From Candidatus Flemingiibacterium sp. (GTDB taxonomy: Bacteria; Bacillota; Clostridia; Oscillospirales; CAG-272): a stretch of DNA of 64,000 nucleotides. The stretch lies in assembly GCA_045636265.1 (NCBI GenBank), contig JAZTXD010000078.1, positions 66,967-130,966 of the forward strand, written 5' to 3'. A model generated the notes under the pieces. It ran no database searches. It was given only the letters and a program-made list of their open reading frames with translations, and was not told the DNA's origin. This document shows, in pieces, positions 6,986 to 29,569 of this stretch. Position numbers and translations under genes: made by a program. How positions within the stretch are numbered: the first letter of the stretch is position 1; every line of letters begins with the position of its first letter.

Positions 6986-7900
6986 TCAACCTTTATTCTG
7001 CTTGTACGGGACTCGTGCAGATGGCACTAATTTCGATGCAGAATCCGTATGAACACTTTGATCATCGAAGAAAATATTTGCGCCAAACGCTTTCAAAACC
7101 TCGCTCTTTTCAATTCCGCCGAGGAAGAAGGCTTCATCAATTCGCACATCCCATGCACGCAGTGTGCGAACAACTCTCTCGTGCGCAGGAGCATTTCTCG
7201 CGGTTACAAGTGCTGTACGGATCGGGACGGCATCCTTGGGGAACTGTTGCTGTATGATTGAAATAGTTTTAAGTAGCTTAGCAAAAGGTCCTTCAGGCAA
7301 CGGATTTTTTGCATTTTCCTGTTCATGCTCGGTGAAAGCCTGCAGTCCTTTTTCCTGATAAACACGTTCTGCTTCATCTGAGAAAATTACCGCATCACCG
7401 TCGAATGCTATACGAATTTGAGTTATTTCGTTGTCAGCATTGATCGGGAGCTGATCGTGGCTGCAAATGATACCGGATGCCACATTTGCGTCGATTGCTT
7501 CCTGCACATCGTCCTCATTGGCAGACAAGAACAAATCGGTTTTAAACGCTCCGAGATACGGTGAAATCGAGGCTCCGCTAACCAATGATGCCCTGCTGAT
7601 ATTTAACTTGTAGTGTTCGATGGAATTAAAGATTCTAAGACTCGTATCAGCGCTGTTTTTAGACATAACTATAATTTCTGTCAAATACCGTCCGTCGGCA
7701 TTTAACTGCTGCAGCGCTTTAATCAGCGGGAAGGCGGTGCCGGGCTTTAGAATATCCTTCTCGTGTTCTATTTGATACGCAGAGTATTCTTCCAAACCGG
7801 ATTCTTCAAAAATCTTGTTTTCTGCCTCAAGATCAAATAAAGCTCGAGAAGAAACTCCTATTACCAATTTATCGTCTAACTTCAGCGGCATAACAATCAC
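6986..7900 (-). CDS. 5'-nucleotidase family protein (PF06189-like)
   Basis: KLVIGVSSRALFDL...AYQIEHE...PGTAFPLIKAL pattern typical of this family. Confidence 0.7.
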   Translation of the reverse strand: MIVMPLKLDDKLVIGVSSRALFDLEAENKIFEESGLEEYSAYQIEHEKDILKPGTAFPLIKALQQLNADGRYLTEIIVMSKNSADTSLRIFNSIEHYKLNISRASLVSGASISPYLGAFKTDLFLSANEDDVQEAIDANVASGIICSHDQLPINADNEITQIRIAFDGDAVIFSDEAERVYQEKGLQAFTEHEQENAKNPLPEGPFAKLLKTISIIQQQFPKDAVPIRTALVTARNAPAHERVVRTLRAWDVRIDEAFFLGGIEKSEVLKAFGANIFFDDQSVHTDSASKLVPSARVPYKQNKG

Positions 7901-8322
7901 CTCTCTTTTACAAGTTCCAAAGTCATATCATCCATTTCCCCGTCATAAAAACGTTCCAACACTTTATGAAACACCGAACCGTCTTCGCTGACAAGTGCAA
8001 ACAACGTCATAGATGACCGCAGCTTCAGCGCGTCGGTATGCCCGAATATATCTTTAGGATTTTTATTTTCATGCGCGAGTAATGCCTTACAAATCTCGAT
8101 AATCCGAGCAGACAGAACCGGATGCGCGAGATATGCTCTCGCTTCGGCAAGGTCGGCAATACCGTAGGCGTACGCCATCGAACTCATACCAAGACCGCGT
8201 AGTTGAGGAAAGATGTACCACATCCAATGCGAACGCTTTTTTCCGCGCTTGATTTCATCAAGTGCAGTTGCATATGTATGTTCCTGTGCTTCAATAAATC
8301 TATCTAAAGAATTGATGTCCAT
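7897..8322 (-). CDS. DUF1810 protein
   Basis: RFIEAQ...KRSHWMWYIFPQLRGLG...EARAYLAHPVL signature. Confidence 0.75.
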   Translation of the reverse strand: MDINSLDRFIEAQEHTYATALDEIKRGKKRSHWMWYIFPQLRGLGMSSMAYAYGIADLAEARAYLAHPVLSARIIEICKALLAHENKNPKDIFGHTDALKLRSSMTLFALVSEDGSVFHKVLERFYDGEMDDMTLELVKER

Positions 8323-8387
8323 ATTTTCTCCCGACTCGACTGTTTTTTATAAATCCATTATACCATGCATTTATGAACATTTCAATA

Positions 8388-10391: not shown

Positions 10392-10437
10392 AATTATTAT
10401 ACCGCAGCATCAGTCCAAAAAAACGGACACATTTAGA

Positions 10438-10466
10438 TTGACATATCCGTTTTGGCGTGGTATAAT
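10438..10466 (+). promoter_or_regulatory. consensus sigma-A promoter TTGACA-17-TATAAT
   Basis: Read directly from the sequence, 30 nt upstream of the ARH start. Confidence 0.65.
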
Positions 10467-10498
10467 TAATATAATAAATCACATCATCGGAGGTGCCT

Positions 10499-11506
10499 AT
10501 GTCAATCAAGGATAAATACCTCGGATGTCTTATCGGCGGAGCTGTCGGCGATGCGCTTGGATATCCGGTGGAATTTAATACCTACACTCAAATACTCGCG
10601 CGGCACGGCGACGATGGCATAAACGATTATTTCCTCACAAACGACACCGCGCTTATCTCCGACGATACACAAATGACGCTGTTCACTGCCGAAGGTTTGC
10701 TTATGTTCGATGATGACAAACTCACGTCAATATACAACTGTTACCGCGAGTGGGCAGCAATGCAGATTGAGGGATATCCCCTTTCCGAACCGATTTCGCG
10801 CCTTTCTAAATATCCGGAACTTTACGAATCCCGCGAACCCGGACGCACCTGCATATTAAGCCTTGTACATAACGAGCGTGGCAGTGTCGCACATCCTATG
10901 AACGACAGCAAAGGCTGTGGCGGAATAATGCGTGTTGCACCGGTTGGTCTGTATTACAACATAACGAAGACTTCCACCGCTGAAATCTCGAAAATTGCTG
11001 CTGAAGCCGCCGCACTTACCCACGGTCATGAGCTGGGATATATTCCTGCCGCGATACTCGGGCATATGTGTGCTGTTTTGGCTCAAACAGACATGACTGT
11101 TCCCGATGCACTGACAGATGCGGTAAACACCGCAAAAATGCTGTTCGGCGACACAGAGAATATGAAATGTCTGCAAAATCTTATAGAAAAAGCCGTAGAG
11201 CTATCGAAAGCCAACATTCCCGACATTGATGCAATAACACAGCTCGGCGAGGGCTGGGTTGCCGAGGAAACGCTGGCGATAGCGGTGTACTGTTCGCTCA
11301 AATACAGCGACAACTTCGAAAAAACCATAGTTGCGTCGGTCAACCACAGCGGTGACAGCGATTCCACGGGTGCAGTAACGGGTAATATTATGGGTGCACA
11401 TCTGGGACTATCTGCGATACCGCAGAAATACACCGAAAATCTCGAATTGTACGACCTCATAAAGAGCACCGCGGACGAGCTTTACCGTGCCGCATACGAT
11501 ATGTGA
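10499..11506 (+). CDS. ADP-ribosylglycohydrolase family protein
   Basis: DKYLGCLIGGAVGDALGYPVEF N-terminal signature and C-terminal HSGDSDSTGAV metal-site motif. Confidence 0.85.
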   Translation: MSIKDKYLGCLIGGAVGDALGYPVEFNTYTQILARHGDDGINDYFLTNDTALISDDTQMTLFTAEGLLMFDDDKLTSIYNCYREWAAMQIEGYPLSEPISRLSKYPELYESREPGRTCILSLVHNERGSVAHPMNDSKGCGGIMRVAPVGLYYNITKTSTAEISKIAAEAAALTHGHELGYIPAAILGHMCAVLAQTDMTVPDALTDAVNTAKMLFGDTENMKCLQNLIEKAVELSKANIPDIDAITQLGEGWVAEETLAIAVYCSLKYSDNFEKTIVASVNHSGDSDSTGAVTGNIMGAHLGLSAIPQKYTENLELYDLIKSTADELYRAAYDM

Positions 11507-11519
11507 AGGAGAACACAAA

Positions 11520-12500
11520 ATGGCAGGAAACCAGAAAATAAAGATACTCTACCTTATGAAAATACTCCTTGAGGGCACCGATGACGAGCGCGGTATGACG
11601 CTTGAGGAGATTACAAACGCCCTCGCGTCTTACGGCATAAATGCCGAGCGCAAAACGCTGTACGATGATTTTGAAACACTTCGTGTATTCGGTCTGGACA
11701 TCGAGAAGCGTAAGGATAAACAGGTACGCTATCACGTTGTCAGCCGCACATTCGAGCTTCCCGAGCTGAAGCTTCTCGTTGACGCGGTGCAGGCTTCAAA
11801 ATTCATCACGCATAAAAAGAGCATCGAGCTTATCAACAAACTTGAAACGCTCACGAGCGCAAATCAGGCGCGTACACTCAACCGCCAGGTATTCGTTGCT
11901 GGGCGTATTAAGACGATGAACGAGAGTATCTATTACACCGTTGACTACATTCACGAGGCACTGTCAGCGAACAAGAAGCTGTCATTTCACTATTTCGAGT
12001 GGAACGAGAAAAAGGAGCGTGTACTCCGCCACGACGGCAGAGTTTACGTTGTGAGTCCTTTCGCGCTGACGTGGGATGACGAAAACTACTATATGATAGC
12101 ATACGACTCCCTCTCTGAGAGCGTACGGCATTATAGAGTTGATAAAATGCTGAAAATCAAGGTACTCGACGAGCCGCGTGACGGTGCGGAAGCGTTCAAG
12201 GATTTCGATATGGCGGCATACGCGAAGAAGACGTTCGGTATGTTCGGCGGCAAAGAAGAAGCGGTAACGCTTCGCTGCAAAAATCACCTTGCGGGAGTTA
12301 TCATTGACCGCTTCGGAAACGACTTGCTCTTTTCAAAGGTGGACGACGAGCATTTCGAGGTGCGCGTAAAAGTTGCTGCAAGTCCGCTGTTCCTGACATG
12401 GGTTATGAACTTCGGCGCAGATATGCGGATAGTTTCACCGAACAATGTAAAAGACGAGCTTGTGAAGCTTGCAAAGGTTGCGATTGCACAGTATGAATAA
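11520..12500 (+). CDS. HTH + WYL domain transcriptional regulator
   Basis: N-terminal wHTH (ILYLMKILLEGTDDERGMTLEEI), central WYL-type region, RBS GAAGGAG upstream of ATG 11520. Confidence 0.75.
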   Translation: MAGNQKIKILYLMKILLEGTDDERGMTLEEITNALASYGINAERKTLYDDFETLRVFGLDIEKRKDKQVRYHVVSRTFELPELKLLVDAVQASKFITHKKSIELINKLETLTSANQARTLNRQVFVAGRIKTMNESIYYTVDYIHEALSANKKLSFHYFEWNEKKERVLRHDGRVYVVSPFALTWDDENYYMIAYDSLSESVRHYRVDKMLKIKVLDEPRDGAEAFKDFDMAAYAKKTFGMFGGKEEAVTLRCKNHLAGVIIDRFGNDLLFSKVDDEHFEVRVKVAASPLFLTWVMNFGADMRIVSPNNVKDELVKLAKVAIAQYE

Positions 12501-12505
12501 AATTT

Positions 12506-12546
12506 GAGCCGATTGCGTCCCCGCAATCGGCTCTGTCCGTTTTTTA
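12506..12546 (+). terminator. rho-independent terminator
   Basis: GAGCCGATTGCG-tccc-CGCAATCGGCTC followed by a T-run. Confidence 0.8.
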
Positions 12547-12609
12547 GGACTCTTGACGTGGTACAATGTATACAGTAGAAAAAGCTGAACAAAAACGGAG
12601 GACAATCAC

Positions 12610-13014
12610 ATGAAAAACATATTCGTAACAATCACAGGACAGAACCATTACCTCGGCATGAAGCCGTACAAGGTCGGTCGCATCGTAAAGCTTGTGAAGG
12701 ATGTTGATAATGAGCACGATGAAAATGCAATTGCTGTTCTTCTCCCGTTTATAGACGTAATCGGATATGTTGCTAACAGCACCAATACTGTATTCCAGGG
12801 TACATACAGCGCAGGACGCCTTTACGATAAAATAGATGATTCAGCGCTTGCAGAGATAATGTTTATTACTCATTCGAGTGTAATCGCGCGTGTGCTTTCG
12901 GAGGATGAGAAAAGCGAATTCAAGAAAGCGAACGGCATCGGAGTAGATGAGAGTGACAGCGAAACGACGAGAGAAGAACAGAAATCCAAGCCGCTTTCGA
13001 AAATCGGGTTTTAG
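12610..13014 (+). CDS. HIRAN domain protein
   Basis: VTITGQNHY...VKLVKDVDNEHDENAIAV pattern (HIRAN NxxDxNAI core). Confidence 0.65.
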   Translation: MKNIFVTITGQNHYLGMKPYKVGRIVKLVKDVDNEHDENAIAVLLPFIDVIGYVANSTNTVFQGTYSAGRLYDKIDDSALAEIMFITHSSVIARVLSEDEKSEFKKANGIGVDESDSETTREEQKSKPLSKIGF

Positions 13015-18024: not shown

Positions 18025-19188
18025 TTAATCTAAGCTCGGGATGATAAGATTTTGACCGATATATATCTTATTTACATCGGAAATGCCGTTTAGAGCCATT
18101 ATTATCCTGTAGTTTGATAGGTAGTCCAAGCCGTTCTTGATGCAAATTGAAGACAAAGAGTCTCCTGCTTCGACGGTATACATGATGAAGTCAATACTGT
18201 TTTCACTTTGAGAAGGCATATCGGTGCTTGAATTATCCTGTTGTTGTTCGATATAACTTTTTAATTCAGTTAGCAGAATCTCTTGGTTTTCCAATTCGAT
18301 CTCATGATTTTCCAATTTGCTCAATAGATCTGCAGCCGTAGTTTTATCTGAACTATCAAGAATTCCATCAATAAAATAACTTTGTAAAGTTGTTATTTCA
18401 GCACCCTGTCTTTCAATTATATCTCTTTGTGCATCTAATGCTTCATTAAAGTCTGAAACAATCTCATTTTGTTTATCAATACGTTCCTGATAGTCTTTAT
18501 ATAATGAAATCAAGGAAATCCCCATAATTAGCGATATGACACTTAATATAGATACAACAGAAATTAGCGCCTTATTTGAGTTCCGCTTTGGCTGGACTAT
18601 CTCTTTTTTGATTTGTTCAATCTTAATTGGTTTGCCCACATCGTCATAGACATAGTACCCTTTGAGTTTTTCAATTTTTCCGTTTTTCCATTGGAAGAAT
18701 CCACGAATATTTTGAATCGGGTCAATTACATAGGCAATCTGGAATGGAAGATTAAAGAAATTCTCTTGGATAAACATGTCGTAATTTGACAAGAAAATTC
18801 CGTAGTTTGGATGCGTATGCTGCCAACCGATTATCTTCTTGTCCGGATACAAACGCTCGTGTTCCGAATGAATGTAGTCCCATGTCTCATGGGTAAAAGT
18901 AAGGGTGGAGGCAGAGGCGTCCGTGTATTTGGCTTCAACAAAGTTAGAGATTATCACATTTGTTTTTCCGAGCTCTTGACAGTAATCACCGAGGAGGATA
19001 CTGCCAAGTTCTTTGCTTGTGTCTGAAGCTGACAATTTTTCAAGTGCCTTGTAAATATCCTGTTTGATATATACCTTCACATCATCATTCTCAATTTCTC
19101 CGAAAGTCAAGAAATTCATAGGAAGTTGAACACTGCCAGTATCTTCTGTTTTTTCTTCTCCAAATTCTATTTCGAAATTCCTATCCAC
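18025..19188 (-). CDS. membrane-anchored JAB/JAMM (MPN+) metallopeptidase with extracytoplasmic coiled coil and C-terminal LysM domain
   Basis: IIGWQHTHPNYGIFLSNYD (HxH-x7-S-x2-D), one TM (ALISVVSILSVISLIMGISLISL), LysM YTVEAGDSLSSICIKNG...IYIGQNLIIP. GTG start 7 nt after GGAGG. Confidence 0.85.
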   Translation of the reverse strand: MDRNFEIEFGEEKTEDTGSVQLPMNFLTFGEIENDDVKVYIKQDIYKALEKLSASDTSKELGSILLGDYCQELGKTNVIISNFVEAKYTDASASTLTFTHETWDYIHSEHERLYPDKKIIGWQHTHPNYGIFLSNYDMFIQENFFNLPFQIAYVIDPIQNIRGFFQWKNGKIEKLKGYYVYDDVGKPIKIEQIKKEIVQPKRNSNKALISVVSILSVISLIMGISLISLYKDYQERIDKQNEIVSDFNEALDAQRDIIERQGAEITTLQSYFIDGILDSSDKTTAADLLSKLENHEIELENQEILLTELKSYIEQQQDNSSTDMPSQSENSIDFIMYTVEAGDSLSSICIKNGLDYLSNYRIIMALNGISDVNKIYIGQNLIIPSLD

Positions 19189-19200
19189 TATATTACCTCC

Positions 19201-20097
19201 TTATACAAACAGTATCGCAGTTAACAATGCATATCCAATAAGCGTAAGAACAGTAGCAGTAGTATTTACACCGCAATTTTTCAGAATAAACTGCGTTTTA
19301 TACGGCTCGCTCATGGTTTTAGCTTGATTGGCTTTGTTTTCAAGGAATTTCATATAAATATCGTTTCCAAAAACGCCAAGGACAATATACCCTGCAAACA
19401 AGAGCAACGAAAGAAAAACGGAACCAATTAGTGATAGCAAAAACGCCACTCCAAGAAGACCCGCACCATAACCATACATTTTTCGGTATATCATCCAATA
19501 AGGCGTAACCAAAAAAGCTGCCCAGTTCCACGATGTATTCTTGTTGTTTGATTTTAATTCTCGAAATTTTGGGATATAGTATTCCGCCTTAATTCCGATA
19601 AGCTGTTGAACATCATAATCAATGACGGTGCTTTGCTGTGATTGATAGCTATTATACCCATTAGAGTTATAATTGTTTGACGAATCAACATAGGAATAAA
19701 GATTTGTGCTTGCAGGATTTACTCGTGTATAAGCTATGGCCTGATGCTCTTGTTCAAAGCCCGTTGTAAGCCTATTGCCACACTTAGAACAAAACGAAGA
19801 AGAAGCATTGCTTTGTGCTCCGCATTTCGTGCAGTAAACCACACTGGATGGCGTATCATTTCTCCTTACGTCATCATAATTCATGTGGTTTGTGGTAACA
19901 GATGTAATAGTATCATCTGCAGACTTTATTGTACCAAGGCAGCCGAAAGTAGTACAGCCTTGATTTTCAACCCAACAATCTTTGTGGTGTGGCATATCGC
20001 ACTCGCTACAAACAACTATCGCATCATTAGACTTAAATTCGGTTTTGCAGAAAGGACAAATCTTGCCGGTATAATCATTCACCGATATTTCCTCCAT
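19201..20097 (-). CDS. RING/PHD-type (C4HC3) zinc-finger + zinc-ribbon protein with C-terminal multi-TM DUF2628-like domain (E3-like, paralog 3)
   Basis: CPFC-x12-CSEC-x3-HH-x2-C-x6-C-x4-C, then CTKCG-x10-CSKCG, then NWAAFLVTPYWMIYRKMYGYG. ATG 20097 is preceded by GGAGG. The track's longer ORF to 20313 is the alternate frame of the neighbour's repeat. Confidence 0.8.
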   Translation of the reverse strand: MEEISVNDYTGKICPFCKTEFKSNDAIVVCSECDMPHHKDCWVENQGCTTFGCLGTIKSADDTITSVTTNHMNYDDVRRNDTPSSVVYCTKCGAQSNASSSFCSKCGNRLTTGFEQEHQAIAYTRVNPASTNLYSYVDSSNNYNSNGYNSYQSQQSTVIDYDVQQLIGIKAEYYIPKFRELKSNNKNTSWNWAAFLVTPYWMIYRKMYGYGAGLLGVAFLLSLIGSVFLSLLLFAGYIVLGVFGNDIYMKFLENKANQAKTMSEPYKTQFILKNCGVNTTATVLTLIGYALLTAILFV

Positions 20098-21217
20098 CTT
20101 CGTTTGGTTCTTGGAGTGCATCATCTGTTGAAGCATTTGTTGAGTCATCTGTTGAAACATCTGCCGAGTCATCTGTCGAAGCGTCTGCCGAGTCATCTGT
20201 CGAAGCATCTGCTGAGTCATCTGTTGAAGCATCTGCTGAGTCATCCGTTGACTCGTCAGTTGCATCATCGTCAGAAGTGCTATTGTCAGAAGTGCTATTG
20301 TCAGAAGAATCATCTATTGTTTCGCCACCCGGTATAGTTGGCTCAGATTCTGGTTTAACAAAAATTCCCGCCTGGCTCAAAATGTCACTTAAATCTTCAA
20401 TTTGGCTGTTCAGTCCTTCGATTTCGGATGTTTGGGAAGAAATAAGCTGATGCATATATGCAAGACTTTGGTTTGCAGAGTCAACAAGTGTTCGCTGTTG
20501 GCTTTCAATTTTTTCAAGTTTGTTATTCGTTGAAATGTTGGAGAAAATCAAAAATACAACTGCAACGGAAAGGATAGCGAGTAGGATATTTTTTCCACTA
20601 AAAATTGTTGTATCTTCTTTTTGAACTACTTCATCATTCTCCACATCTACATCAATGTTTACACCGGTTTTATCATAAATGTAAAATCCTTTACACTTTT
20701 CGATTTTTCCGTTAATCCAGAAATAGAATCCCTCAATATTCTGGATTGGGTCAACTACGTAAGCAACTTGATGGTCCTCGTTAAAGAAATTTTGATGAAT
20801 AAATCTATCATATTCAGACAGAAAAATACCGAAGTCCGGATGCGTATGAATCCAACCTACAATTTTTTTGCCTTTATGCTTTTTTTCGATTTCTTTATGT
20901 ACATGCTCCCATGTTTCATGGGTGAACTTCAAAGTGGTGGGGGTTGAATCACAATGTTTAGCTTCAACAAAACCGCTAATTACAATATTAGTTTTTCCAA
21001 ATTCTTCAATTACCGAACCAACAAGCATACCGCCACTTTCGTTGGTAGTTTTATTCTCGGTAAAGTTATGAATCTCTTTGTACGCCTTTTGCGAAATATA
21101 TATGTTTTTGTTTTCTTCTACACGCTCGCCAATAGGGAGAATGTTCTGGGGCAGTACGTTCTCCGGCATTTCTGTTGCAATATTCTTTTTTATTTTGTTT
21201 TTTGCTTTCTTAGCCAT
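20075..21217 (-). CDS. membrane-anchored JAB/JAMM metallopeptidase with coiled coil and acidic STDDSADA-repeat tail
   Basis: ESGGMLVG...IVGWIHTHPDFGIFLSEYD, one TM, 8-aa tandem repeats at the C-terminus. ATG 21217 follows GGGAG. Confidence 0.85.
   Translation of the reverse strand: MAKKAKNKIKKNIATEMPENVLPQNILPIGERVEENKNIYISQKAYKEIHNFTENKTTNESGGMLVGSVIEEFGKTNIVISGFVEAKHCDSTPTTLKFTHETWEHVHKEIEKKHKGKKIVGWIHTHPDFGIFLSEYDRFIHQNFFNEDHQVAYVVDPIQNIEGFYFWINGKIEKCKGFYIYDKTGVNIDVDVENDEVVQKEDTTIFSGKNILLAILSVAVVFLIFSNISTNNKLEKIESQQRTLVDSANQSLAYMHQLISSQTSEIEGLNSQIEDLSDILSQAGIFVKPESEPTIPGGETIDDSSDNSTSDNSTSDDDATDESTDDSADASTDDSADASTDDSADASTDDSADVSTDDSTNASTDDALQEPNEDGGNIGE
20121..20300. repeat. coding tandem repeat: 6 x 24 nt (20121-20264) then 2 x 15 nt (20271-20300)
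   Basis: Units TCATCTGTTGAAGCATCTGCTGAG and variants, read directly from the sequence. Confidence 0.9.
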
Positions 21218-21222
21218 CTTTC

Positions 21223-22116
21223 TTACTCCCATACATCAATATCGAAATCCGTTCTTTCCCTCGGATCATATTGTAATGTAATATTTTTCTTTTTTTGATA
21301 TATTAACAAAACAGCAAACACGATATTTCCAATTAAAGATACTCCTGCAATGAAGAACGCAACATAAGTAACCATAGGAAGCTGCTCGTTATCGTAGTAA
21401 TCAGTTTTGTTTTCTTCGTTTTCATTTTCTGCCGTATAAGGCAGAGTTACTTCTGGCACTTCGATGTTTTGCAAAACATTTCCGTTTGTGTTTAACTCAA
21501 TTCCAAGAGATATAAGATAACTGCAAATCCTTGTTATCGGAATTGCCAGACCAATCCCTTCACTATCAAACATTTTTAATGTATTCATTCCAAGAACTTC
21601 GCCAGCATCATTAAGCAAGGGGCCGCCGCTATTACCCTCATTGATAGGGGCATCAATTTGAATATAAGAACGTTTTCCGATTATTCTCTCCTTAGCGGAA
21701 ACGCCACCTTTGGTAAGGGTATAGGCCATGCCCTTGGGGGCACCTATAGCATAAATATCATCACCAGTTTTCATTGTTGAAAGATCAGCAACCGTCAAAA
21801 AAGGAAAACTGACATCATTCACAACCAAAACAGCTATATCTTCATCCTCATTTATACCAAGAACAGATGCACCATACTCAGTACCTCCATAAGTGACGAC
21901 AGAGATACGTTTAGTGTTTTCAATAACGTGTGCGTTAGTTACTATGCAGTTTTCACCGATAGCAAACCCGCTGCCCATAGAATTCCCAGAGTATATGACG
22001 AAAACTGATTCATAAGCGTTTTCGGCTTCAAAGCCTATTGCACTCACGGATAAAGCGGAGGCGAATACTACCGCCACCACAATCATCAAAGAGAGTAATC
22101 CTCTGATTGGTTTCAC
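21223..22116 (-). CDS. exported trypsin-like (S1/HtrA-type) serine protease with C-terminal membrane anchor
   Basis: Signal peptide ...ALSVSA. Catalytic triad contexts TNAHV, DIAVL and GNSGGPL. C-terminal TM. GTG start after AGGAGG. Confidence 0.85.
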   Translation of the reverse strand: MKPIRGLLSLMIVVAVVFASALSVSAIGFEAENAYESVFVIYSGNSMGSGFAIGENCIVTNAHVIENTKRISVVTYGGTEYGASVLGINEDEDIAVLVVNDVSFPFLTVADLSTMKTGDDIYAIGAPKGMAYTLTKGGVSAKERIIGKRSYIQIDAPINEGNSGGPLLNDAGEVLGMNTLKMFDSEGIGLAIPITRICSYLISLGIELNTNGNVLQNIEVPEVTLPYTAENENEENKTDYYDNEQLPMVTYVAFFIAGVSLIGNIVFAVLLIYQKKKNITLQYDPRERTDFDIDVWE

Positions 22117-22140: not shown

Positions 22141-24030
22141 TTATTTAGTATTAAACACCAGCACAGAGTTGCCTATTGCAATTGCATCACCTTGACGCAA
22201 TACATGGCGTACTGTTTTCTGACCATTTACGATGGTGCCCATAGGAGTACCGCAGTCGGTCAAAACATACTTGCTACCTTCAAGCTTGATGTCGCAGTGA
22301 TGCGGACCGACAAGCTTATCTTTGAACAGTACAATGGTGTTTTTGCCGTTGTTACCAATGCTCGTGGTTCCTGCAAATACAAGATACTCTTTACCTTCAA
22401 ATTCACCACGGATAACTTTAAGCCATGCAGCTTTTGCAAACTGTTCAAGCAGACCGACACCTACGCCAATCAAAATGCCCATCACACCAATGGCAACACC
22501 TCTGGCAACGACGTCATTGGGGATAACATCGCAAACATAGTTAAACAGGAAACCGCCGATAAAGGCTCCCACCAAACCACCAAGAGCGCAGAAAAGTATA
22601 CGCTTCTTTTCCGGCTTTATTAAGCCGGCCGATACGCCAATACCGAGACCCATGATAGCCCAGCCCAAGCCGCGAATGAGTGCAGCTGTGAAATCGGCAG
22701 GATCATCTCCCAAAAGTTCAGCGTACATCCACTGTGCCAAGTAACCACTTATAAATCCGATAACAAGTGATACACAAGCGCCGATCAGTGCATATTTGAT
22801 TGCCTTTTCTTTAGAACCATAGTAGATTCCTTCACCAATTCCAAGGAACAATCCAATAAAGAGTGCAATAGCAGCAGACCAAAGAGCTGTACTTGTTCTT
22901 GTAACAATCGCCAGCGCATCCCAAAGGTCATCCTCATCTTCATCGTAAGTGTTCTCATACACTTCATAGAGAGCGTCATTTGCTTTATCATCATACGCTG
23001 AATAATCTTCAAGATAATCTATTGCTTTGTCTGATGCTCCATTTGAGAGCCAATCAGTGAAAGTGTTGCTTGCCTCGGCGTTTTTGTTTTCTTTTTTGCA
23101 ATACGCTTCAAATTCGTCGTATGCTTTCTCCCATGCAGAATCGGCTTTTGCTGTATATTCGAGATACTCAACAAATTCTGAACGTCCACAAAGTCTGGCG
23201 GCAGTCACGTCACTTGTAAGATTAGTTTCTGTTAACTCAGAAACACCAAATCCAATAAATGAACCTATTAAAGCCCAAAGTAAACCTTTGACTAAAATAG
23301 TCTTGAAATTCAGCTTGTTACTCTTTACTGTTCCACCGTGAGATACCGTTTGCATTCTCTGAGCAGTGGGGACAAACTCTATCCCGGCAAGTTCTTCAGC
23401 GGTAATCTCGAAGTCGTTCTCGTCAGTTTTTTCCAACACAGCAACAGGAGCAACGGTGGTATCGGGAGCAATATCTGTAGGAACTTCGGGGGCAGTAGTC
23501 GTATCTTCCATTACTGAGCCATCATCCCCAAACAAGTCAATCTCAACAACTTCTTTTGAAGAAGCATAGTCAGCGATATATAGGTCTATATTCCCAACCG
23601 GGAACAAGTGCTTGTTTTCCATAGCCCATTGAGCTGCGTCCGCAGACAGAGGGCTATAAGAGTTCCATGACTTGTACTGAATCATATCACCTATATTTAT
23701 GATAATATCGCTCAAAGATTCTCCCGCACCCCAGATATCTCCAATGCAAATTTGTCCATCACGGAAGTTTGGATGCCAAATGGGTGTAAGAATTTTACAG
23801 ATAGGTTTATAACGAGGATAATCAGCATGGAGAGTTATTTCAATTTCATGCCTACCTAAAGTTTCAATTCTACCGTCTTCTAAGAGGTAAATACCGTTCA
23901 CAAAATATGTAACGTGATATTTTTCCGGCAGCTCATCACCAATGGGCGTAACGATAATATTTTTGTGACCAGTAAAGTCTTTTTTTACTTGCTCATAGTC
24001 AGAGGCAAGTCGTCTCATTCTTGCAGTCAT
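22141..24030 (-). CDS. E2 (UBC-fold) ubiquitin-conjugating-enzyme-like domain fused to a polytopic membrane region and a C-terminal FHA-like domain
   Basis: N-terminus RLASDYEQVKKDF...YPRYKPICKILTPIWHPNFRDGQICIGDIW...SPLSADAAQW (HPN 86-88, Cys95). About 6 predicted TM helices. C-terminus IGNNGKNTIVL...HHCDI...YVLTDCGTPMGTIVNGQK...GDAIAIGNSVLVF. Confidence 0.85.
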   Translation of the reverse strand: MTARMRRLASDYEQVKKDFTGHKNIIVTPIGDELPEKYHVTYFVNGIYLLEDGRIETLGRHEIEITLHADYPRYKPICKILTPIWHPNFRDGQICIGDIWGAGESLSDIIINIGDMIQYKSWNSYSPLSADAAQWAMENKHLFPVGNIDLYIADYASSKEVVEIDLFGDDGSVMEDTTTAPEVPTDIAPDTTVAPVAVLEKTDENDFEITAEELAGIEFVPTAQRMQTVSHGGTVKSNKLNFKTILVKGLLWALIGSFIGFGVSELTETNLTSDVTAARLCGRSEFVEYLEYTAKADSAWEKAYDEFEAYCKKENKNAEASNTFTDWLSNGASDKAIDYLEDYSAYDDKANDALYEVYENTYDEDEDDLWDALAIVTRTSTALWSAAIALFIGLFLGIGEGIYYGSKEKAIKYALIGACVSLVIGFISGYLAQWMYAELLGDDPADFTAALIRGLGWAIMGLGIGVSAGLIKPEKKRILFCALGGLVGAFIGGFLFNYVCDVIPNDVVARGVAIGVMGILIGVGVGLLEQFAKAAWLKVIRGEFEGKEYLVFAGTTSIGNNGKNTIVLFKDKLVGPHHCDIKLEGSKYVLTDCGTPMGTIVNGQKTVRHVLRQGDAIAIGNSVLVFNTK

Positions 24031-24047: not shown

Positions 24048-24521
24048 TTAATCATTTCCTTTAGTAGGCTTTACGACATTGATTTTAAGCGCAGATATAC
24101 AAGCAATGAGAAGTCCCACGCAAATATAAATTCCCTTACTAATCTGAGCAGCCGCAATTTTGCCACCTCTGAGACATGCCTCAATAATGTAATTATAGGC
24201 ATAGCCACCAACATATTCAGTCATAGTGTATGAACTGATGTAATCGGATGGGGCACTGATACCAATACCAACAATTAACATAATAATTCCAACAGCTAAA
24301 CAGCCGACCGGAATAACATTGCTCATTATAGTTTTTTTGACATCAATTTTATCCTTCTGTCCGTTTTTTAGTTTGATGTTCATGTTGTACTGCTGGATGG
24401 GAGTAGGTTCAGATGCCGCCTGTGTATTGCATCTCTCGCCACATTGGGGACAAAAAGATGCATTTATATCAAGTTCTGTTCCGCATTTGAAACAGAACTT
24501 TTTGTTTGCTTCAGTATTCAT
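24048..24521 (-). CDS. zinc-ribbon membrane protein
   Basis: CFKCG-x10-CPQCG followed by 2-3 TM segments. Confidence 0.65.
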   Translation of the reverse strand: MNTEANKKFCFKCGTELDINASFCPQCGERCNTQAASEPTPIQQYNMNIKLKNGQKDKIDVKKTIMSNVIPVGCLAVGIIMLIVGIGISAPSDYISSYTMTEYVGGYAYNYIIEACLRGGKIAAAQISKGIYICVGLLIACISALKINVVKPTKGND

Positions 24522-24538: not shown

Positions 24539-25726
24539 TTACATCCCTTCAAAAACTTCTGCTTCATCTGATGTAAATTCATAATATGTAGTATTCGCAC
24601 CAACCCTGCCACCAATAATGTGTAACACTGGAATACCAATATCAAAAGGCGTTTTATCAAGGAAATCTTCTTCGCCTTTAATGGAATGAACACTATCAAA
24701 AGTCATTTGATTGCCACATTTTGGACAAGTCAGCATATTGCCTTTGAGCTTATGAACCGGCGTGAATAAATCCTTACATTCGCCGCAAGAGCATTTAGCA
24801 GTCGTAGCAATGTCCCTATCAAAATCGAGAACAGCTTTTTCTCCGAGTTCATTTCGGATTTCTGCTAAAATTTCTTTGAGAGTGATTGTTTTAACAGACC
24901 AGGGCTTTTCTACAATCTTTTCGTATGTATCATGGCTCATGCAGTCCTCTTTACGTTGATACTCCACGACATAGGAATCATGTGTTAAACCATTAAATAC
25001 ATATCCCTTGCCTGCAAGAGTAGGAAGATTTCTGTCTGCATGGAGCAACTTCAGCATTTCTTGCACTTGGATGCCTGCGATAATCGATGAAGAAGTTGGA
25101 GTGGTAGGAATTTTACCCTCCGCCATCTGCTCGTGGGTAAGCAAAGCGCAGGATTTGCGCTTGTTAATCAGCATCCAGTCCGTTTCGGTCATGGTGCATT
25201 CATAGCAAGCCCCCTGCCCGGGGATGAAGACGCGGGCAAAGCCGTTAAGCGCTTCGATAGCGCCATCAATCCAAGGTCGATCCACCTTGTAGCATGACTG
25301 GTTAATGGAAAGACGTGCCTCACGGTTATCCAAACCACCCAAAACCACATTCATTCTGCGGAACACACCCAAGCCAACATCATCAATAATGTTAGCAATA
25401 AACGCCTTAGCCTTGACATCAGGATTCATTTCCTTAGCCCGCTCGGCAGCAACTTCCGCCTTATAACGGCCCACATCACGCGCTCTGTAAAGAACTGATC
25501 GAGTGAGGTTGGTGCTTTCAATGGCATCCATATCGTATACAAGGATTCTACCGATGCCCAACAAAGCCAGATTCTTAATCAATTCATTTCCGATAGCACC
25601 AGCGCCTACGACCATGATAGTTGCATTTTTTAGCCGCTCCTGATCCCACCAGGGAATCAGCCGAAGACGAGCGTAGCGGTCTTCTTCAAAGTCAGAGCTT
25701 TTCAGCTCAAGGGTATCATTCTCCAT
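24539..25726 (-). CDS. E1-like adenylyltransferase (ThiF/MoeB/UBA family)
   Basis: VVGAGAIGNE nucleotide loop, NLTRS, GLDNREAR, CYEC and CSCGEC...CPKCG zinc motifs, candidate crossover-loop Cys in KRKSCALL. Confidence 0.9.
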   Translation of the reverse strand: MENDTLELKSSDFEEDRYARLRLIPWWDQERLKNATIMVVGAGAIGNELIKNLALLGIGRILVYDMDAIESTNLTRSVLYRARDVGRYKAEVAAERAKEMNPDVKAKAFIANIIDDVGLGVFRRMNVVLGGLDNREARLSINQSCYKVDRPWIDGAIEALNGFARVFIPGQGACYECTMTETDWMLINKRKSCALLTHEQMAEGKIPTTPTSSSIIAGIQVQEMLKLLHADRNLPTLAGKGYVFNGLTHDSYVVEYQRKEDCMSHDTYEKIVEKPWSVKTITLKEILAEIRNELGEKAVLDFDRDIATTAKCSCGECKDLFTPVHKLKGNMLTCPKCGNQMTFDSVHSIKGEEDFLDKTPFDIGIPVLHIIGGRVGANTTYYEFTSDEAEVFEGM

Positions 25727-26001
25727 TACATTGCACCTGCTGTAATTTCAGGCTGAAGACGAAGAACATCACCGTCTTTGATACCAGCTTCGGCAAGTGT
25801 TTGAGCTTCAAGCAGCTGCCTGCCGGTGACCTTATGGATAAACTTATAGCTAATGGGGTTGCCATCGGGACCGACAGAGGGGAGTTTAATTTTCTCCACA
25901 AGCTTTACCATGATAATGCCGCACTTAATGTCGTCCGGCAGACCAACTTTCTGTTCTTTGTTGCCAGTAGCATCCACAATAATTACATTAACTTTTGCCA
26001 T
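25726..26001 (-). CDS. ubiquitin-like beta-grasp protein (Ubl)
   Basis: 91 aa. ...TLAEAGIKDGDVLRLQPEITAGAM* is the classic Ubl C-terminal pattern. Its stop overlaps the E1 start (ATGTAATGG). Confidence 0.75.
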   Translation of the reverse strand: MAKVNVIIVDATGNKEQKVGLPDDIKCGIIMVKLVEKIKLPSVGPDGNPISYKFIHKVTGRQLLEAQTLAEAGIKDGDVLRLQPEITAGAM

Positions 26002-26031: not shown

Positions 26032-26907
26032 TTAATCTAATAAGTTTTCGAGTGCTCTGTAGCAGGCGAGAAACTCATCAGTAATTTCGTTGTTATTATC
26101 ACTATATGAGTTGTAGTTGCCGGAAGGGTCTGTTGCAAGGCTGTAAAATTCTGTATACACGTTATACAAATCTTTTACTGCGTCACAGAGGTCTTCAATC
26201 TCATCTAAATCTTCTTCAGAAATATGTTCGGGAACTTTTTTGAGTTCAGAGTATAAGTCCTTCATTTGAGTGTCATACTCTCCAGCCTGGTCGATTTCAT
26301 CAGACTTATCAATCAACGCAAGCAAAATTGCAGTATCGATATCAGCTCCGTGCTTGTCTTCCCAAATGTTCTCATACCAATACTTCTGGACAGTATCGGC
26401 AATGTCTTCAAGATTAGCCCCGGCAGTTATAGACAAGGTAAGGAAATCTTCGACATTTTCAATGTACTCTTTCCTTGCTTCCTCAGCCTTCTTTTCACCT
26501 ATTGTTTTAGAAATGAAGAAACCGAGAGCAGCAACGACTACCAAAACAACTGCAATTACAATGGGGAGAGCTTTCGATTTTGCCTTTTTCTTTTCAATCC
26601 CCGTATTGAACTGGCTGATAGCAGTGTTGACATTAGTATCTACGGCCATGCCAACTTTTTGTCCACACTTAGAACAGAACTCCTGTCCGGCACCCAATGT
26701 AGCTCCGCAATTATTGCAGGCAGCAATAGGATTAGTTCCTTTTTCTTCGTAATGCTGCTCAGAGCAACCGAAAGTAGTGCACCCCTTGTTTTCTTCCCAA
26801 CACCCATCGTGGTGGGGAATGTTGCAAGCAGGGCATACTTTCACACCGTCTCCTTCTTTAATCTCCGTTTTGCAAAACGGACAAGTTTTTCCCACATAGT
26901 TTTCCAT
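26032..26907 (-). CDS. RING/PHD-type (C4HC3) zinc-finger + zinc-ribbon single-pass membrane protein (E3-like, paralog 2)
   Basis: CPFC-x12-CPAC-x3-HH-x2-C-x6-C-x4-C, CNNCG-x10-CSKCG, TM ALPIVIAVVLVVVAALGFFI, acidic helical C-terminal domain. Confidence 0.8.
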   Translation of the reverse strand: MENYVGKTCPFCKTEIKEGDGVKVCPACNIPHHDGCWEENKGCTTFGCSEQHYEEKGTNPIAACNNCGATLGAGQEFCSKCGQKVGMAVDTNVNTAISQFNTGIEKKKAKSKALPIVIAVVLVVVAALGFFISKTIGEKKAEEARKEYIENVEDFLTLSITAGANLEDIADTVQKYWYENIWEDKHGADIDTAILLALIDKSDEIDQAGEYDTQMKDLYSELKKVPEHISEEDLDEIEDLCDAVKDLYNVYTEFYSLATDPSGNYNSYSDNNNEITDEFLACYRALENLLD

Positions 26908-26932
26908 ATTATCAAACCTCCATAATTAATAA

Positions 26933-28153
26933 TTAGTCCCATTTATATTCAGAAACTTTACTTGTAATTTTCGAGTTCTGCTTCTTTACATTAGAAATAG
27001 CATTGTCTACACTTTTTTCCTTGGTATCTTTACTCGAATAATACGTTGAATAAGCAACGGAAGGCCGCTTATTTATGTAGTTGTGATAGTCTTCGTATTT
27101 TTTATACAGCTCATTTAATGAAGAATATAATTTCTTATATTCTTCAGGTGCGTGCTTCAGTTCCAGCATAATTAATTCCAACGCACTCATATTTTGGTTT
27201 GCTATAGAAAGAGAATTTTCGAAAGCTTGCGCAGTATCAGCATCTACTACATAAGTATAGCCGTTTGCATACCGTGACCAATAATAATAGACCATATAAG
27301 AAGAACCGCTGTAAAGCCTGGACATAGCAGTTGAAATATCAGCATCATAAAGATCGGTATACAAAAGCGTGTTGTATACACAACCGCCAAGCACTTTATC
27401 AAGGTCATATCCTCGCGAAATCAGAGCATATGCAATCTGAGCATCCGATAAATAATCGTTTTTTATCTCTGCGATCTTGCTTTCGCTGTCCGAAAAGCCT
27501 TCAAGTGAAAGAAGAATCTCAATTGCATCAAAATGATTGTTGTTTTCGAACAGCTTAATTGCATCATCATATTTTTCTTGTTTTATGGCATTTTCGCAAT
27601 TTATGATTTGTTCTTCGCTGTCCTTAAAACCTCCTAATTCCTTGAATAAACTAATCGCACTTTCGTAGTCGCCGTTGGTGTACATTTCCTTTGCTTCTTG
27701 ATATTTAGCATTCGGAGCAAAATATAAGAACCAAGAAACAACAATACCGGCAATAACAGCACACACGATAATCGGCAACCATATAGTCAAAAACCTTTTT
27801 TTCTTTTTCTTGGCATTTGTAATATTGCGATTGAATTCTTCTATCGAGCGGTTTGCCTCATGTGTAACCGCAGTGTTGTTGCCGCAAGATGGACAGAACA
27901 AATCTCCGTCATTAAATATTGCTCCGCAGATTGTACATTTCTTTTCTGTCATTATCGCGTTTTGCTCAACGCCTGTTGCAGGTTCGCCTTCCAAGGTGTT
28001 ATGCTGTGAACAGTTTGGCGAAGAACAGCCTTTGTTTTCTTCCCAACAACCGCTGTGATGGGGAATGTTGCAAGCAGGGCAGACTTTTACATTATCTTCC
28101 TCTTTGATTTCCGTTTTGCAAAACGGACAAATTTTCCCAATGTAGTTTCCCAT
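26933..28153 (-). CDS. RING/PHD-type (C4HC3) zinc-finger + zinc-ribbon single-pass membrane protein with TPR-like repeats (E3-like, paralog 1)
   Basis: Same Cys/His spacing. CTICG-x10-CPSCG. One TM. Repeats ...GDYESAISLFKELGGFKDSEE... and ...HFDAIEILLSLEGFSDSES... Confidence 0.8.
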   Translation of the reverse strand: MGNYIGKICPFCKTEIKEEDNVKVCPACNIPHHSGCWEENKGCSSPNCSQHNTLEGEPATGVEQNAIMTEKKCTICGAIFNDGDLFCPSCGNNTAVTHEANRSIEEFNRNITNAKKKKKRFLTIWLPIIVCAVIAGIVVSWFLYFAPNAKYQEAKEMYTNGDYESAISLFKELGGFKDSEEQIINCENAIKQEKYDDAIKLFENNNHFDAIEILLSLEGFSDSESKIAEIKNDYLSDAQIAYALISRGYDLDKVLGGCVYNTLLYTDLYDADISTAMSRLYSGSSYMVYYYWSRYANGYTYVVDADTAQAFENSLSIANQNMSALELIMLELKHAPEEYKKLYSSLNELYKKYEDYHNYINKRPSVAYSTYYSSKDTKEKSVDNAISNVKKQNSKITSKVSEYKWD

Positions 28154-28224
28154 GGAAATCCTCCTAAAGACAAACTTGTTTTATTGCTTAAGTCGCCCTG
28201 CGACATTATAACAATAGGTAGTGA

Positions 28225-28914
28225 TTACTTTAAATCATGCGGCAGACACATATCACACGGTTCATACTCGCCGTTTTCAAGCTCTTCAATCGTCATCCGA
28301 CGAATATTGTTTTTTCCCTTTACAAAAATGCATTTTTCTTCGTGATACTTATTTCCGGCTGAAGTCAAATAGTATTCGCCATAATAGTGGTGTTCCTTTT
28401 GAATGGCGTTAAATACTGTTAAACCGATTGCAGATACTATAAGCAGAGCGACTACAATGCTGACAACCTTTCTATGGCTCTTGATAGTATTGAGAGCTTT
28501 ACGACCAATACCGTTGCTTAAAATATAATGGGTAAATTCGTTCGCTTCATATTCCTCAACAACATCTTTTCCTATAACGGGATAGGAGGAAAGATGTCCA
28601 CAGTATATGTGCCCCTCCTCGTGAGCCAACACCAAGCGTTTTTCATCATCAGAAAGGTCTTCGTGCAAAAAAACGAGTCGCCGTTGCTTATCAGCAAAGG
28701 TAAAGCCTTTTGATTTGTCTATAGCTTCTTCAATACCCAATGCTTCAATTAACGTGGTTACGTTTTCATCATTGAATATATGGTTATATTCAATGATGGT
28801 ATATCCTTGCAACTTGATGATTCGACATAAATCTTCAAGTGTCACCTCATTCAAGTTATATTCGATGAGAAACGCTCTCGCTTTTGCTTTAATGTCATTC
28901 TTCATTGATATCAT
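28225..28914 (-). CDS. ImmA/IrrE-family zinc metallopeptidase with TM segment and C-terminal Cys-rich tail
   Basis: HEXXH motif in LVLAHEEGHIYCGH, TM VVSIVVALLIVSAIGLTVF, tail KYHEEKC...PCDMC. Confidence 0.8.
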   Translation of the reverse strand: MISMKNDIKAKARAFLIEYNLNEVTLEDLCRIIKLQGYTIIEYNHIFNDENVTTLIEALGIEEAIDKSKGFTFADKQRRLVFLHEDLSDDEKRLVLAHEEGHIYCGHLSSYPVIGKDVVEEYEANEFTHYILSNGIGRKALNTIKSHRKVVSIVVALLIVSAIGLTVFNAIQKEHHYYGEYYLTSAGNKYHEEKCIFVKGKNNIRRMTIEELENGEYEPCDMCLPHDLK

Positions 28915-29452
28915 TTTTTTGGATAGACCTTAATGCTTTCATAGCTTCAACATCCTTGGAAGAAGGTATAGCATTCAACAAGCTGATTCCGCCAAAAGAT
29001 TTTACGACGGCTTCACTGGGGAGTTGTGTGCACCTCGCATACTCTACCATAATCATTGAATTGATTGCTTGTTTGGCTTTCTCATCCAGGTATTCAAGAA
29101 TATCCTCTGCTTGATTTCCCAAAATTGAGCTGAGACCGAAACTGGAATAGTCCATACCATCATTAAACCGAATAACTAACTCCTTGGGAAATAAGGAAAG
29201 CATACGCAGCATTTTATGTGTTTTTTGATTGTGATCAAAAAACAACACTAAAGAAAGATATGTGCTCCACGACATTCTTCTGACTTTACGTTCAATCGCA
29301 CTGTAAGTTTGGCGAGAAACGCCTATAAGATTTGCCAATTCTTCTTGTGATATTTCCGCGTGTGTTCTTAGTGCAGGCAAGTTTGGCGTAAGTGTTGCAA
29401 TAAACTCGTCCTTTTCTGCATCAGTCAGCAACCATTTTGATACAGATTCCAT
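28895..29452 (-). CDS. XRE-family HTH regulator (first gene of the Ubl operon)
   Basis: ISQEELANLIGVSRQTYSAIERKVRRMSWSTY. Confidence 0.8.
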   Translation of the reverse strand: MESVSKWLLTDAEKDEFIATLTPNLPALRTHAEISQEELANLIGVSRQTYSAIERKVRRMSWSTYLSLVLFFDHNQKTHKMLRMLSLFPKELVIRFNDGMDYSSFGLSSILGNQAEDILEYLDEKAKQAINSMIMVEYARCTQLPSEAVVKSFGGISLLNAIPSSKDVEAMKALRSIQKNDINEE

Positions 29453-29540: not shown

Positions 29541-29569
29541 ATTATACACCATGTTGTCAGATTTGTCAA
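29541..29569 (-). promoter_or_regulatory. perfect consensus sigma-A promoter TTGACA-17-TATAAT for the Ubl operon, with a TTGACAA-ATC-TGACAA direct half-site repeat over the -35
   Basis: The reverse strand reads TTGACAaatctgacaacatggtgTATAAT, ~90 nt upstream of the XRE start. Confidence 0.65.

Follow-up and report, generated by a model that had tools for sequence, protein, structure and literature searches.

We analysed a 64,000-nucleotide stretch of DNA from Candidatus Flemingiibacterium sp. (Bacillota, Clostridia; contig JAZTXD010000078.1, positions 66,967 to 130,966 of the forward strand), hereafter called the window. It carries three genes for membrane proteins with an N-terminal RING-like finger, located in one operon with genes for a ubiquitin-like protein (Ubl), an activating (E1) and a conjugating (E2) enzyme and two JAB peptidases. 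All three genes are on the reverse (-) strand. RING-A (26032..26907) encodes 291 aa, with the finger at residues 9-48, a zinc ribbon at C64-C81, a transmembrane (TM) helix at about residues 114-132 and a C-terminal helical-bundle ectodomain. RING-B (26933..28153; 406 aa) combines an A-type finger and a zinc ribbon with one TM helix, preceded by a K-rich flank, and a TPR-like ectodomain. RING-C (19201..20097; 293-298 aa) has a C-type finger, a zinc ribbon and a DUF2628 multi-TM domain.

The initial annotation, made from the letters of the DNA and their open reading frames (ORFs), had described a zinc ribbon after the finger, followed by TM helices and unrelated C-terminal regions, and this architecture was recovered here. 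The ribbon C-x2-C-x10-C-x2-C is present in all three proteins, with the Pfam models Zn_Ribbon_1/3 scoring at or just under threshold. TM prediction gave one hydrophobic segment after the ribbon in RING-A, one in RING-B and three to four in RING-C, and the C-terminal regions are unrelated to one another. The DUF2628-like multi-TM domain is that of RING-C, where it reaches 25.2 bits for a cut-off of 23. The TPR-like repeats can be seen in RING-B as two A-x-x-LF-x-x-L-x-GF-x-DSE repeats, the TPR/ANAPC3 matches in Pfam being sub-threshold only. An acidic helical domain had also been described, and for RING-A AlphaFold2 predicts a helical bundle at residues 140-291 with confidence (predicted local distance difference test score, pLDDT, >93). 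As a weak lead, Foldseek searches with full-length RING-A returned only generic helical bundles and chemoreceptor four-helix-bundle (4HB) sensor domains (E>=0.011), and Pfam gave nothing significant on the ectodomains of RING-A and RING-B. The gene and the finger motif of the third copy, annotated at 19201-20097, were confirmed, but its start is most likely GTG 20082 and not ATG 20097, because a GGAGG lies 8 nt upstream of this GTG and the GTG start aligns with the starts of RING-A and RING-B. An ORF extension to 20313 in front of RING-C (72 aa, MTQQMLQQ...) corresponds to an out-of-frame reading of the tandem repeat in the upstream JAB gene.

A six-frame regular-expression scan with the ligand pattern C-x2-C-x12-C-x2-C-x3-HH-x2-C-x6-C-x4-C returned exactly three matches in the window, at 26764-26883 (RING-A), 28010-28129 (RING-B) and 19939-20058 (RING-C), all on the (-) strand and at the N-termini, and a looser eight-ligand pattern gave no further match in these 64 kb. 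The ligand spacing said to open all three proteins is thus found in each of them and is exclusive to these genes. Across 40 diverse homologues, C9, C12, C25, C28, H33, C36, C43 and C48 are invariant, as are W37 and G42; H32, the first His of the HH pair, is conserved in only ~90% of them. Because H32 is not invariant, H33 is taken as the ligand, which gives the eight zinc ligands in the C4HC3 order that had been put forward. Of 99 RING copies from related loci, 98 have a span of exactly 40 residues from the first to the eighth ligand (C1 to C8). A Pfam search had been suggested as a check, and in it the three proteins exceed the gathering threshold of PF14446 (Prok-RING_1; 29.1 bits), with 42.1 bits for RING-A, 54.8 for RING-B and 48.6 for RING-C. 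The corresponding E-values of 8e-11, 9e-15 and 8e-13 exclude a chance match. No match at E<=0.1 was obtained in any of the three with the zf-RING, PHD, C1, Prok-RING_2 or Prok-RING_4 models. By their sequences, the three proteins are members of Prok-RING_1. This family was reportedly defined in silico by Burroughs, Iyer and Aravind (Mol Biosyst, 2011), and its bacterial members are reported to have Ubl, E1, E2 and JAB neighbours and TM helices after the finger. The window proteins likewise have TM helices C-terminal to the finger, and Ubl, E1, E2 and JAB genes as neighbours.

The structure of the finger was modelled with AlphaFold2 on residues 1-60 of RING-A (mean pLDDT 83.7). The model contains a beta-hairpin (22-24/31-33) with the second Cys pair at the turn, and a helix (34-40) leading away from the H33/C36 pair; in this prediction, knuckle, hairpin and helix have treble clef geometry. 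Among the top 50 Foldseek neighbours in the PDB, all but a few chains of larger complexes are RING or PHD fingers, with probabilities of up to 0.99. RING neighbours include RNF126, EL5, RNF165, RNF12, RNF38, RNF13 and Arkadia, several of them solved with E2~Ub, and the PHD fingers of MLL3 and Pygopus are interleaved with them. The spacing was also compared with that of three known finger classes. For PHD fingers (C-x2-C-x(8-21)-C-x(2-4)-C-x(4-5)-H-x2-C-x(12-46)-C-x2-C), the first six ligands fit, but the C6-C7 loop has 6 residues and not >=12, and the last pair is C-x4-C. In the profile and Foldseek searches, too, PHD fingers come up as weak neighbours only. RING-CH/RINGv fingers of the MARCH and Doa10 type (C3-x-C4-x7-H with a long C6-C7 loop) differ from the window fingers, which have C3-x2-C4-x4-H and C6-x6-C7. 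C1 domains (H-x12-C-x2-C-x13/14-C-x2-C-x4-H-x2-C-x7-C) begin with a His that is absent here, an extra C-terminal Cys being present instead, and no Pfam C1 match was found.

The operon consists of closely spaced or overlapping (-) genes running from 29452 down to 18025, with gaps of <=71 nt. Its genes are transcribed in the order helix-turn-helix (HTH) regulator, M78 peptidase, RING-B, RING-A, Ubl, E1, Zn-ribbon protein, E2, protease, JAB, RING-C and JAB-LysM. The features of a complete Ubl-conjugation operon are present, namely a Ubl Gly that can be exposed and intact E1, E2 and JAMM sites (39-47 orthologues). We drew 77 related loci via RING-A homologues and compared their ORFs with the window proteins. 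RING genes occur together with E1 and E2 in 49 of these loci. We propose that the three genes encode membrane-anchored RING-type E3-like proteins in one operon for complete, membrane-embedded Ubl conjugation, with a probability of about 0.72, and that they most likely serve as three alternative E3 adaptors for one membrane-bound E2. The term "E3-like adaptors" had already been used in the initial annotation, and it fits this conserved setting of Ubl, E1, UBC-type E2 and two JABs.

In the mechanism that we envisage, a JAB peptidase would trim the short Ubl tail and expose the Gly of ...LQPEITAG, the motif and the tails being observed features of the Ubl genes. The ThiF-type E1, which carries the motifs of its family, would then adenylate this Gly and load the Ubl onto Cys95 of the membrane-bound E2 through a thioester bond. 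The cytoplasmic N-terminal finger of RING-A, RING-B or RING-C would cross-brace two zinc ions, as the ligands, the predicted fold and the pattern of ligand loss described below suggest. It would dock E2~Ubl and promote Ubl transfer onto lysine residues of proteins located along the inner membrane face. The parts beyond the membrane helix differ (helical bundle, TPR-like repeats, DUF2628 multi-pass domain), and for this reason the three proteins most likely are alternative adaptors or receptors, each setting the time or the target of E2 action. The "sensor or substrate" role given earlier to these C-terminal domains would be of this kind. The system could also be reversible and coupled to the state of the cell envelope, since it includes two JABs (one with an outside LysM), an outward-facing HtrA-like protease and a membrane-anchored M78 with an HTH partner. 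Among the inferred parts of this scheme are the substrates, the trigger and the way in which the fingers would engage E2~Ubl. As for topology, the K/R-rich N-flanks of the TM helices place the fingers and the UBC and JAB domains in the cytoplasm and the C-terminal domains outside. The domains predicted to be outside are the RING-A helical bundle, the RING-B TPR-like repeats, the LysM and the protease domain.

Several features weigh against this reading, or at least against a simple copy of a RING E3. W37 stands at C6+1, and not at C6+4 as in RING-H2 fingers. No linchpin Arg/Lys follows C8, position 49 being Ser in RING-A and RING-B and Leu in RING-C, and the family consensus around the last ligand reads ...GCSEQ; the linchpin is also absent from some active RINGs. 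The C3-x2-C4-x4-H spacing resembles that of PHD fingers, which in general do not act as ligases. Loop 4 of the E2 has an Arg where UbcH5-type E2s have the Phe that contacts the RING, so that docking, if any, cannot simply copy the eukaryotic interface. The best PDB sequence match is a C1 domain and not a RING: a profile search returned the C1 domain of ARHGEF2 first (E=5.5e-5, full-length alignment), followed by the RING-H2 of EL5 (7e-4) and then by PHD and RING fingers, the top matches all being binuclear treble clefs (C1, RING-H2, PHD). The Foldseek E-values of the finger model are non-significant (best 9.6e-3), as expected for a query of only 60 residues.

The finger could therefore be cross-braced and yet serve as a PHD/C1-like binding module, recognising the Ubl, a peptide tail or a membrane surface, in which case the RING proteins would be scaffolds, receptors or even substrates. 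The ARHGEF2 match, the PHD/C1-like C-x2-C-x4-H-x2-C spacing, the PHD fingers mixed with RINGs among the structural neighbours and the missing linchpin all suit such a module, as does the distance of ~60 residues between the finger and the membrane helix. We nevertheless consider this explanation unlikely, given the strict co-location with UBC E2, E1 and Ubl in the 49 loci, the membership in a curated family of RINGs with no PHD or C1 profile match, and the RINGs solved with E2~Ub among the closest structural neighbours. Two conserved residues may also point to an E3. In an archaeal Ubl/E1/E2 operon, the small RING protein is needed for conjugation in vitro, and mutation of its C1+2 hydrophobic residue or of its helix Trp impairs conjugation (PMC5654768). 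The counterparts of these residues here, F/Y11 and W37, are conserved; among 108 distinct homologue fingers, position C1+2 (F11) is mostly occupied by F or Y, with V in a few and A in P0112.

The distribution of the cassette and of its finger types was examined next to these features. The cassette is common in gut Clostridia. RING-A has 449 homologues, 419 relatives were found in the genome collection, and a RING profile matched 8570 cluster representatives at E<=1e-3; a model locus should therefore be easy to obtain. A search with the 56-aa finger of RING-B alone gave only 6 candidates and was of no use for assessing diversity. Most hosts belong to the Oscillospiraceae, Acutalibacteraceae, Lachnospiraceae and other Clostridia, and a few to the Synergistaceae and other groups. 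Among cultured strains in the fetched loci, Tissierella creatinini BN11 and Lachnospiraceae bacterium MC2017 have the operon, whereas Hominifimenecus sp. rT4P-3 has an orphan RING gene only. The usual gene order is RING-A, Ubl, E1, E2, protease, JAB, RING-C and JAB-LysM, often preceded by HTH-M78 and by another, larger RING protein; HTH and/or M78 lie upstream of the cassette in 22 fetched loci, and both in 16 of them. A-type fingers carry the signature ...VKVCPxCGIPHHExCWEENKGC and C-type fingers ...IVVCSxCDMPHHK[DE]CW[IV]ENQGC, the latter conserved in 38 loci, and a third type is found on TPR-like proteins of 700-830 aa. Identity is 69-73% within a type and ~60% between A and C, whether or not the two come from the same locus. 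A and C are thus old, separately maintained partners of one E2. The idea of one module shared by the three proteins stands insofar as all belong to Prok-RING_1; it has to be qualified in that the A and C types are distinct subfamilies and RING-B carries a copy of the A type.

DNA and third-position identity show this copy to be a younger one. RING-A and RING-B had been reported to be alike over their first ~120 nt (26790-26907 versus 28035-28153), and we found 83% identity across the initial 118 nt, with a drop to <=50% past nt 120. Third-codon-position identity is 0.59 between the two genes and 0.37-0.39 between either of them and RING-C, and 33 of 40 core residues of the fingers of RING-A and RING-B are identical. 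This similarity, together with the presence of RING-B-type genes in only some loci, would be expected if the three were real E3s but functionally redundant copies from a recent duplication. Such redundancy is improbable, because the A and C types each keep their own signature across ~40 loci, the C-terminal domains are unrelated and minimal cassettes retain both an A-type and a C-type RING gene.

The way in which the eight ligands pair was addressed with degenerate copies, sought by running the RING profile against the collected homologue proteins and the ORFs of the loci. Three such copies, in two unrelated proteins (copy 3 of P0168; copies 1 and 2 of P0219), have lost ligands 2, 5 and 6 and kept 3, 4, 7 and 8. 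The joint loss of 2, 5 and 6 lends indirect support to metal sites {1,2,5,6} and {3,4,7,8}, one cross-brace site having gone, and each RING finger is predicted to bind two zinc ions in a cross-brace. Two independent zinc ribbons in place of a cross-brace had been named as a finding that would overturn the RING assignment. Such ribbons in series, one with ligands 1-4 and one with 5-8, would be like those of many zinc-ribbon membrane proteins of Firmicutes, and the RING likeness would be superficial; a true ribbon does follow the finger immediately in each protein, the RING profile gives 357 partial "CCCC" matches on such ribbons and AlphaFold2 does not model zinc, but this arrangement is highly improbable, since the observed loss would ruin both of its sites, H33 and C36 lie at a strand-helix junction in treble clef style, the structural neighbours are RING/PHD fingers and not ribbons, and the scores exceed the Prok-RING_1 threshold. 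Some family members contain two to four Prok-RING_1 fingers, and some of these copies lack one zinc site. P0168 has four fingers followed by an apparent repeat region (possibly a beta-propeller), and in P0066 and P0088 the entire RING and ribbon unit is duplicated.

The remaining genes of the operon, all on the (-) strand, were annotated with Pfam. The first encodes an XRE-type HTH regulator (28895..29452; 185 aa; HTH_3, 32.3 bits). It is followed by an M78 (ImmA/IrrE-like) metallopeptidase (28225..28914; 229 aa; Peptidase_M78, 29.8 bits) with an HEEGH motif and one TM helix. The M78 protein ends in a conserved Cys-containing module of ~50 aa (YYGEYY.T..G.KYHE..C.FVK...N..R.T.EEFESG.YEPC..CLP), present in 17 of 17 orthologues, which share the architecture of membrane anchor plus C-terminal module. 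The module matches no Pfam family, and we take its pattern to recall an Ada-type zinc-binding motif. HTH-M78 pairs are known to regulate defence operons (CapH/CapP literature), from which the pair of the window differs by its membrane-bound M78. A candidate promoter on the same strand lies upstream of the HTH gene (29541..29569; TTGACA-17-TATAAT), its 12/12 identity to the sigma-70 consensus being a consensus match only. A second promoter-like site on this strand (28205-28234; 10/12 plus an extended -10 TG), inside the end of the M78 gene and just upstream of RING-B, would permit expression of the conjugation genes apart from the regulators.

The E1-like adenylating enzyme of the ThiF family (24539..25726; 395 aa; ThiF, 185 bits) has a GxGxxG and a D..NL.R motif, C193 and CxxC pairs, conserved in 46-47 of 47 orthologues. 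A small Zn-ribbon protein with two TM helices follows (24048..24521; 157 aa; Zn_Ribbon_1, 28.3 bits). The E2 (22141..24030; 629 aa) consists of a canonical UBC domain, ~6 TM helices with an acidic outside loop, on which Pfam gave nothing significant, and a C-terminal FHA-like domain (UQ_con, 35.3 bits for a cut-off of 27; FHA, 44.9; Yop-YscD_cpl, 44.0). Its HPN motif and Cys95 are present in 47 of 47 orthologues, and its UBC domain is closest to the eukaryotic UBE2C, UBE2A/B and UBC13 (best PDB sequence matches). In the FHA-like domain (aa 535-629), Arg is replaced by Asn, Ser by Gly/Ala and Asn by Met in nearly all 47 orthologues. We rejected a canonical phospho-dependent FHA role on account of these replacements of the phosphate-binding residues, and the domain is probably a phospho-independent interaction module of the YscD type.

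Downstream of the E2, an HtrA/DegP-like serine protease (21223..22116; 297 aa; Trypsin_2, 102 bits) has a signal anchor at its N-terminus and a TM helix at its C-terminus. It gives DegP/HtrA-type NCBIfam matches, and H63, D93 and S163 are found in 42 of 42 orthologues. JAB/JAMM peptidase 2 (20075..21232; 385 aa; JAB, 39.4 bits) has one TM helix, a coiled region and an acidic tandem repeat of STDDSADA units, and all 40 orthologues retain its E, HxH, S and D residues. The 3' end of its gene contains a 24-nt repeat in 5.5 copies at 20121-20251, encoding the acidic units, and a 15-nt repeat (stretch 20121-20307). JAB/JAMM peptidase 1 (18025..19188; 387 aa; JAB, 26.4 bits; LysM, 37.3 bits), beyond RING-C, has one TM helix, a coiled region and a C-terminal LysM, and its JAMM motif is invariant in 39 of 39 orthologues.

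The Ubl itself (25726..26001; 91 aa) is a YukD-like beta-grasp protein (YukD, 47.1 bits) that ends in ...LRLQPEITAG|AM. The motif [LI]QPEITAG was present in 52 of 53 Ubl ORFs from the fetched loci. After ITAG, a variable tail of 0-9 aa is found in 42 Ubl ORFs and one of 79-318 aa in 10. An invariant ITAG with variable tails is, as a sequence pattern, the signature of a Ubl precursor trimmed to expose Gly. In ten loci (L007, L022, L013, L054, L012, L025, L050-L052 and L056), a long polypeptide is fused directly after ITAG. Six of these fusions contain a Zn-ribbon and two-TM protein homologous to the separate gene 24048-24521 of the window, whose product matches the Ubl tail of L007 over its full length (BLASTP E=1e-11, 27% identity), and four contain a signal-peptide/lipobox protein of ~300 aa. 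These natural linear Ubl fusions recall eukaryotic ubiquitin fused to Zn-ribbon ribosomal proteins.

Among eukaryotic membrane RING ligases that work with membrane E2s are Hrd1 and the RING-CH proteins Doa10 and MARCH, with Ubc6, in endoplasmic-reticulum-associated degradation (ERAD). The window proteins resemble Doa10 and MARCH in having a cytoplasmic C4HC3 RING variant on a membrane protein beside a membrane-anchored E2, where tagging would take place at the membrane face. They differ in that the RING-CH spacing (C-x-C-x7-H, long last loop) is absent, homology is limited to the finger and the UBC domain, most of the bacterial proteins cross the membrane once and carry outside domains, and the operon encodes no proteasome or Cdc48 partner. 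The Ubl/E1/E2/srfp/Rpn11 operon of Caldiarchaeum subterraneum (PMC5654768) shares with the cassette a Ubl with a C-terminal extension, removed in the archaeon by JAB/Rpn11, a ThiF-type E1, a canonical UBC E2 and a RING protein (small in the archaeon, where its C1+2 hydrophobic residue and helix Trp matter for activity), all in one operon. However, the archaeal proteins are soluble, with one RING-H2 (C3H2C3) that has a linchpin Arg and a Ubl that ends in GG, whereas the window has C4HC3 fingers without the linchpin, a Ubl ending in AG, and an E2, three E3s, two deubiquitinases (DUBs) and a protease that are all membrane-anchored. Bil, Bub and type II CBASS (Cap2/Cap3) also combine E1, E2, Ubl and JAB parts, with a JAB that processes the Ubl, in mobile or variable loci, but they are soluble and have no RING protein; Bub uses DUF6527 proteases and fused enzymes (PMC11601603). 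By PADLOC models and gene set, the cassette does not belong to Bil, Bub or type II CBASS. The window E1 and JAB give generic E1-E2 and JAB matches in PADLOC, with weak scores for BilD and BilC (28 and 15 bits), and the RING, Ubl and E2 proteins match no specific model, the RING and Ubl proteins being without any match. Beyond these, PADLOC returned only generic E1, JAB and protease matches, and NCBIfam yielded no system-specific family for the cassette proteins.

Bacterial Ubl operons that contain RING proteins are still called rare and uncharacterised (PMC10557695). Our literature searches returned no experimental study of Prok-RING systems. The cassette is not known to have anti-phage activity. 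Bacterial RING-type E3s are said to have been predicted in silico in 2011, and the cassette proteins belong to a known, computationally described kind and not to a new one. The existence of such a system would not surprise specialists. It lends itself to the question of whether the RINGs of bacteria are genuine E3s. Recent studies of ubiquitin-like defence in bacteria (Bil, Bub, CBASS) dealt with systems that lack an E3. With the present cassette one could ask whether a bacterial RING stimulates its E2, what is tagged, and whether membrane-coupled ubiquitination is older than eukaryotes. Its natural division among three E3s, two DUBs and one E2 makes the cassette amenable to clean genetic tests.

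The cassette may be a conflict or defence module, or it may serve in envelope surveillance. A tentative view, which we think possible though doubtful, is that of a transmembrane Ubl signalling or defence machine, in which a change in the envelope (phage attack, wall damage) would switch Ubl tagging at the inner face on or off. The E3s, DUBs, E2, protease and a transcriptional anti-repressor would then all be single- or multi-pass membrane proteins with outside domains, which might comprise a chemoreceptor-like helical bundle, TPR-like repeats, LysM, an HtrA-like protease and a small Cys module. If this view were true, the bacterial cassette would have its counterpart in receptor-coupled or ERAD-like ubiquitination, and the Ubl-Zn-ribbon fusions would represent a built-in substrate or precursor.

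In the window, the cassette lies in a low-GC stretch. The flank at 30304-50445 encodes a large serine recombinase, a LexA-like S24 repressor and an SNF2 helicase with a YAcAr/SLOG domain, then a restriction-type cluster (DUF4391, an N6/N4 DNA methylase and a ResIII helicase with an endonuclease domain), and finally a MobA/VirD2 relaxase and ParB. These surroundings look like an integrative mobilisable element with defence cargo. The flanking genes (recombinase, restriction-modification, relaxase) are not conserved beside the cassette at other loci, so that the cassette is not tied to this mobile element. A phage or plasmid origin was also considered and found unsupported. The tblastn search with the E2 against plasmid and phage collections returned nothing, and the scan of viral contigs gave only five weak matches (L078-L082, IMG/VR), to proteins 26-27% identical to RING-A residues 64-288, i.e., to the Zn ribbon, TM helix and helical ectodomain, without the finger. 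On the other side of the cassette, positions 6986-13014 encode a 5'-nucleotidase-family protein, a 667-aa HD_4-domain protein, an ADP-ribosylglycohydrolase, a WYL-WCX regulator and a HIRAN-domain protein, a cluster that may constitute a nucleotide- or ADP-ribose-centred conflict or stress module.

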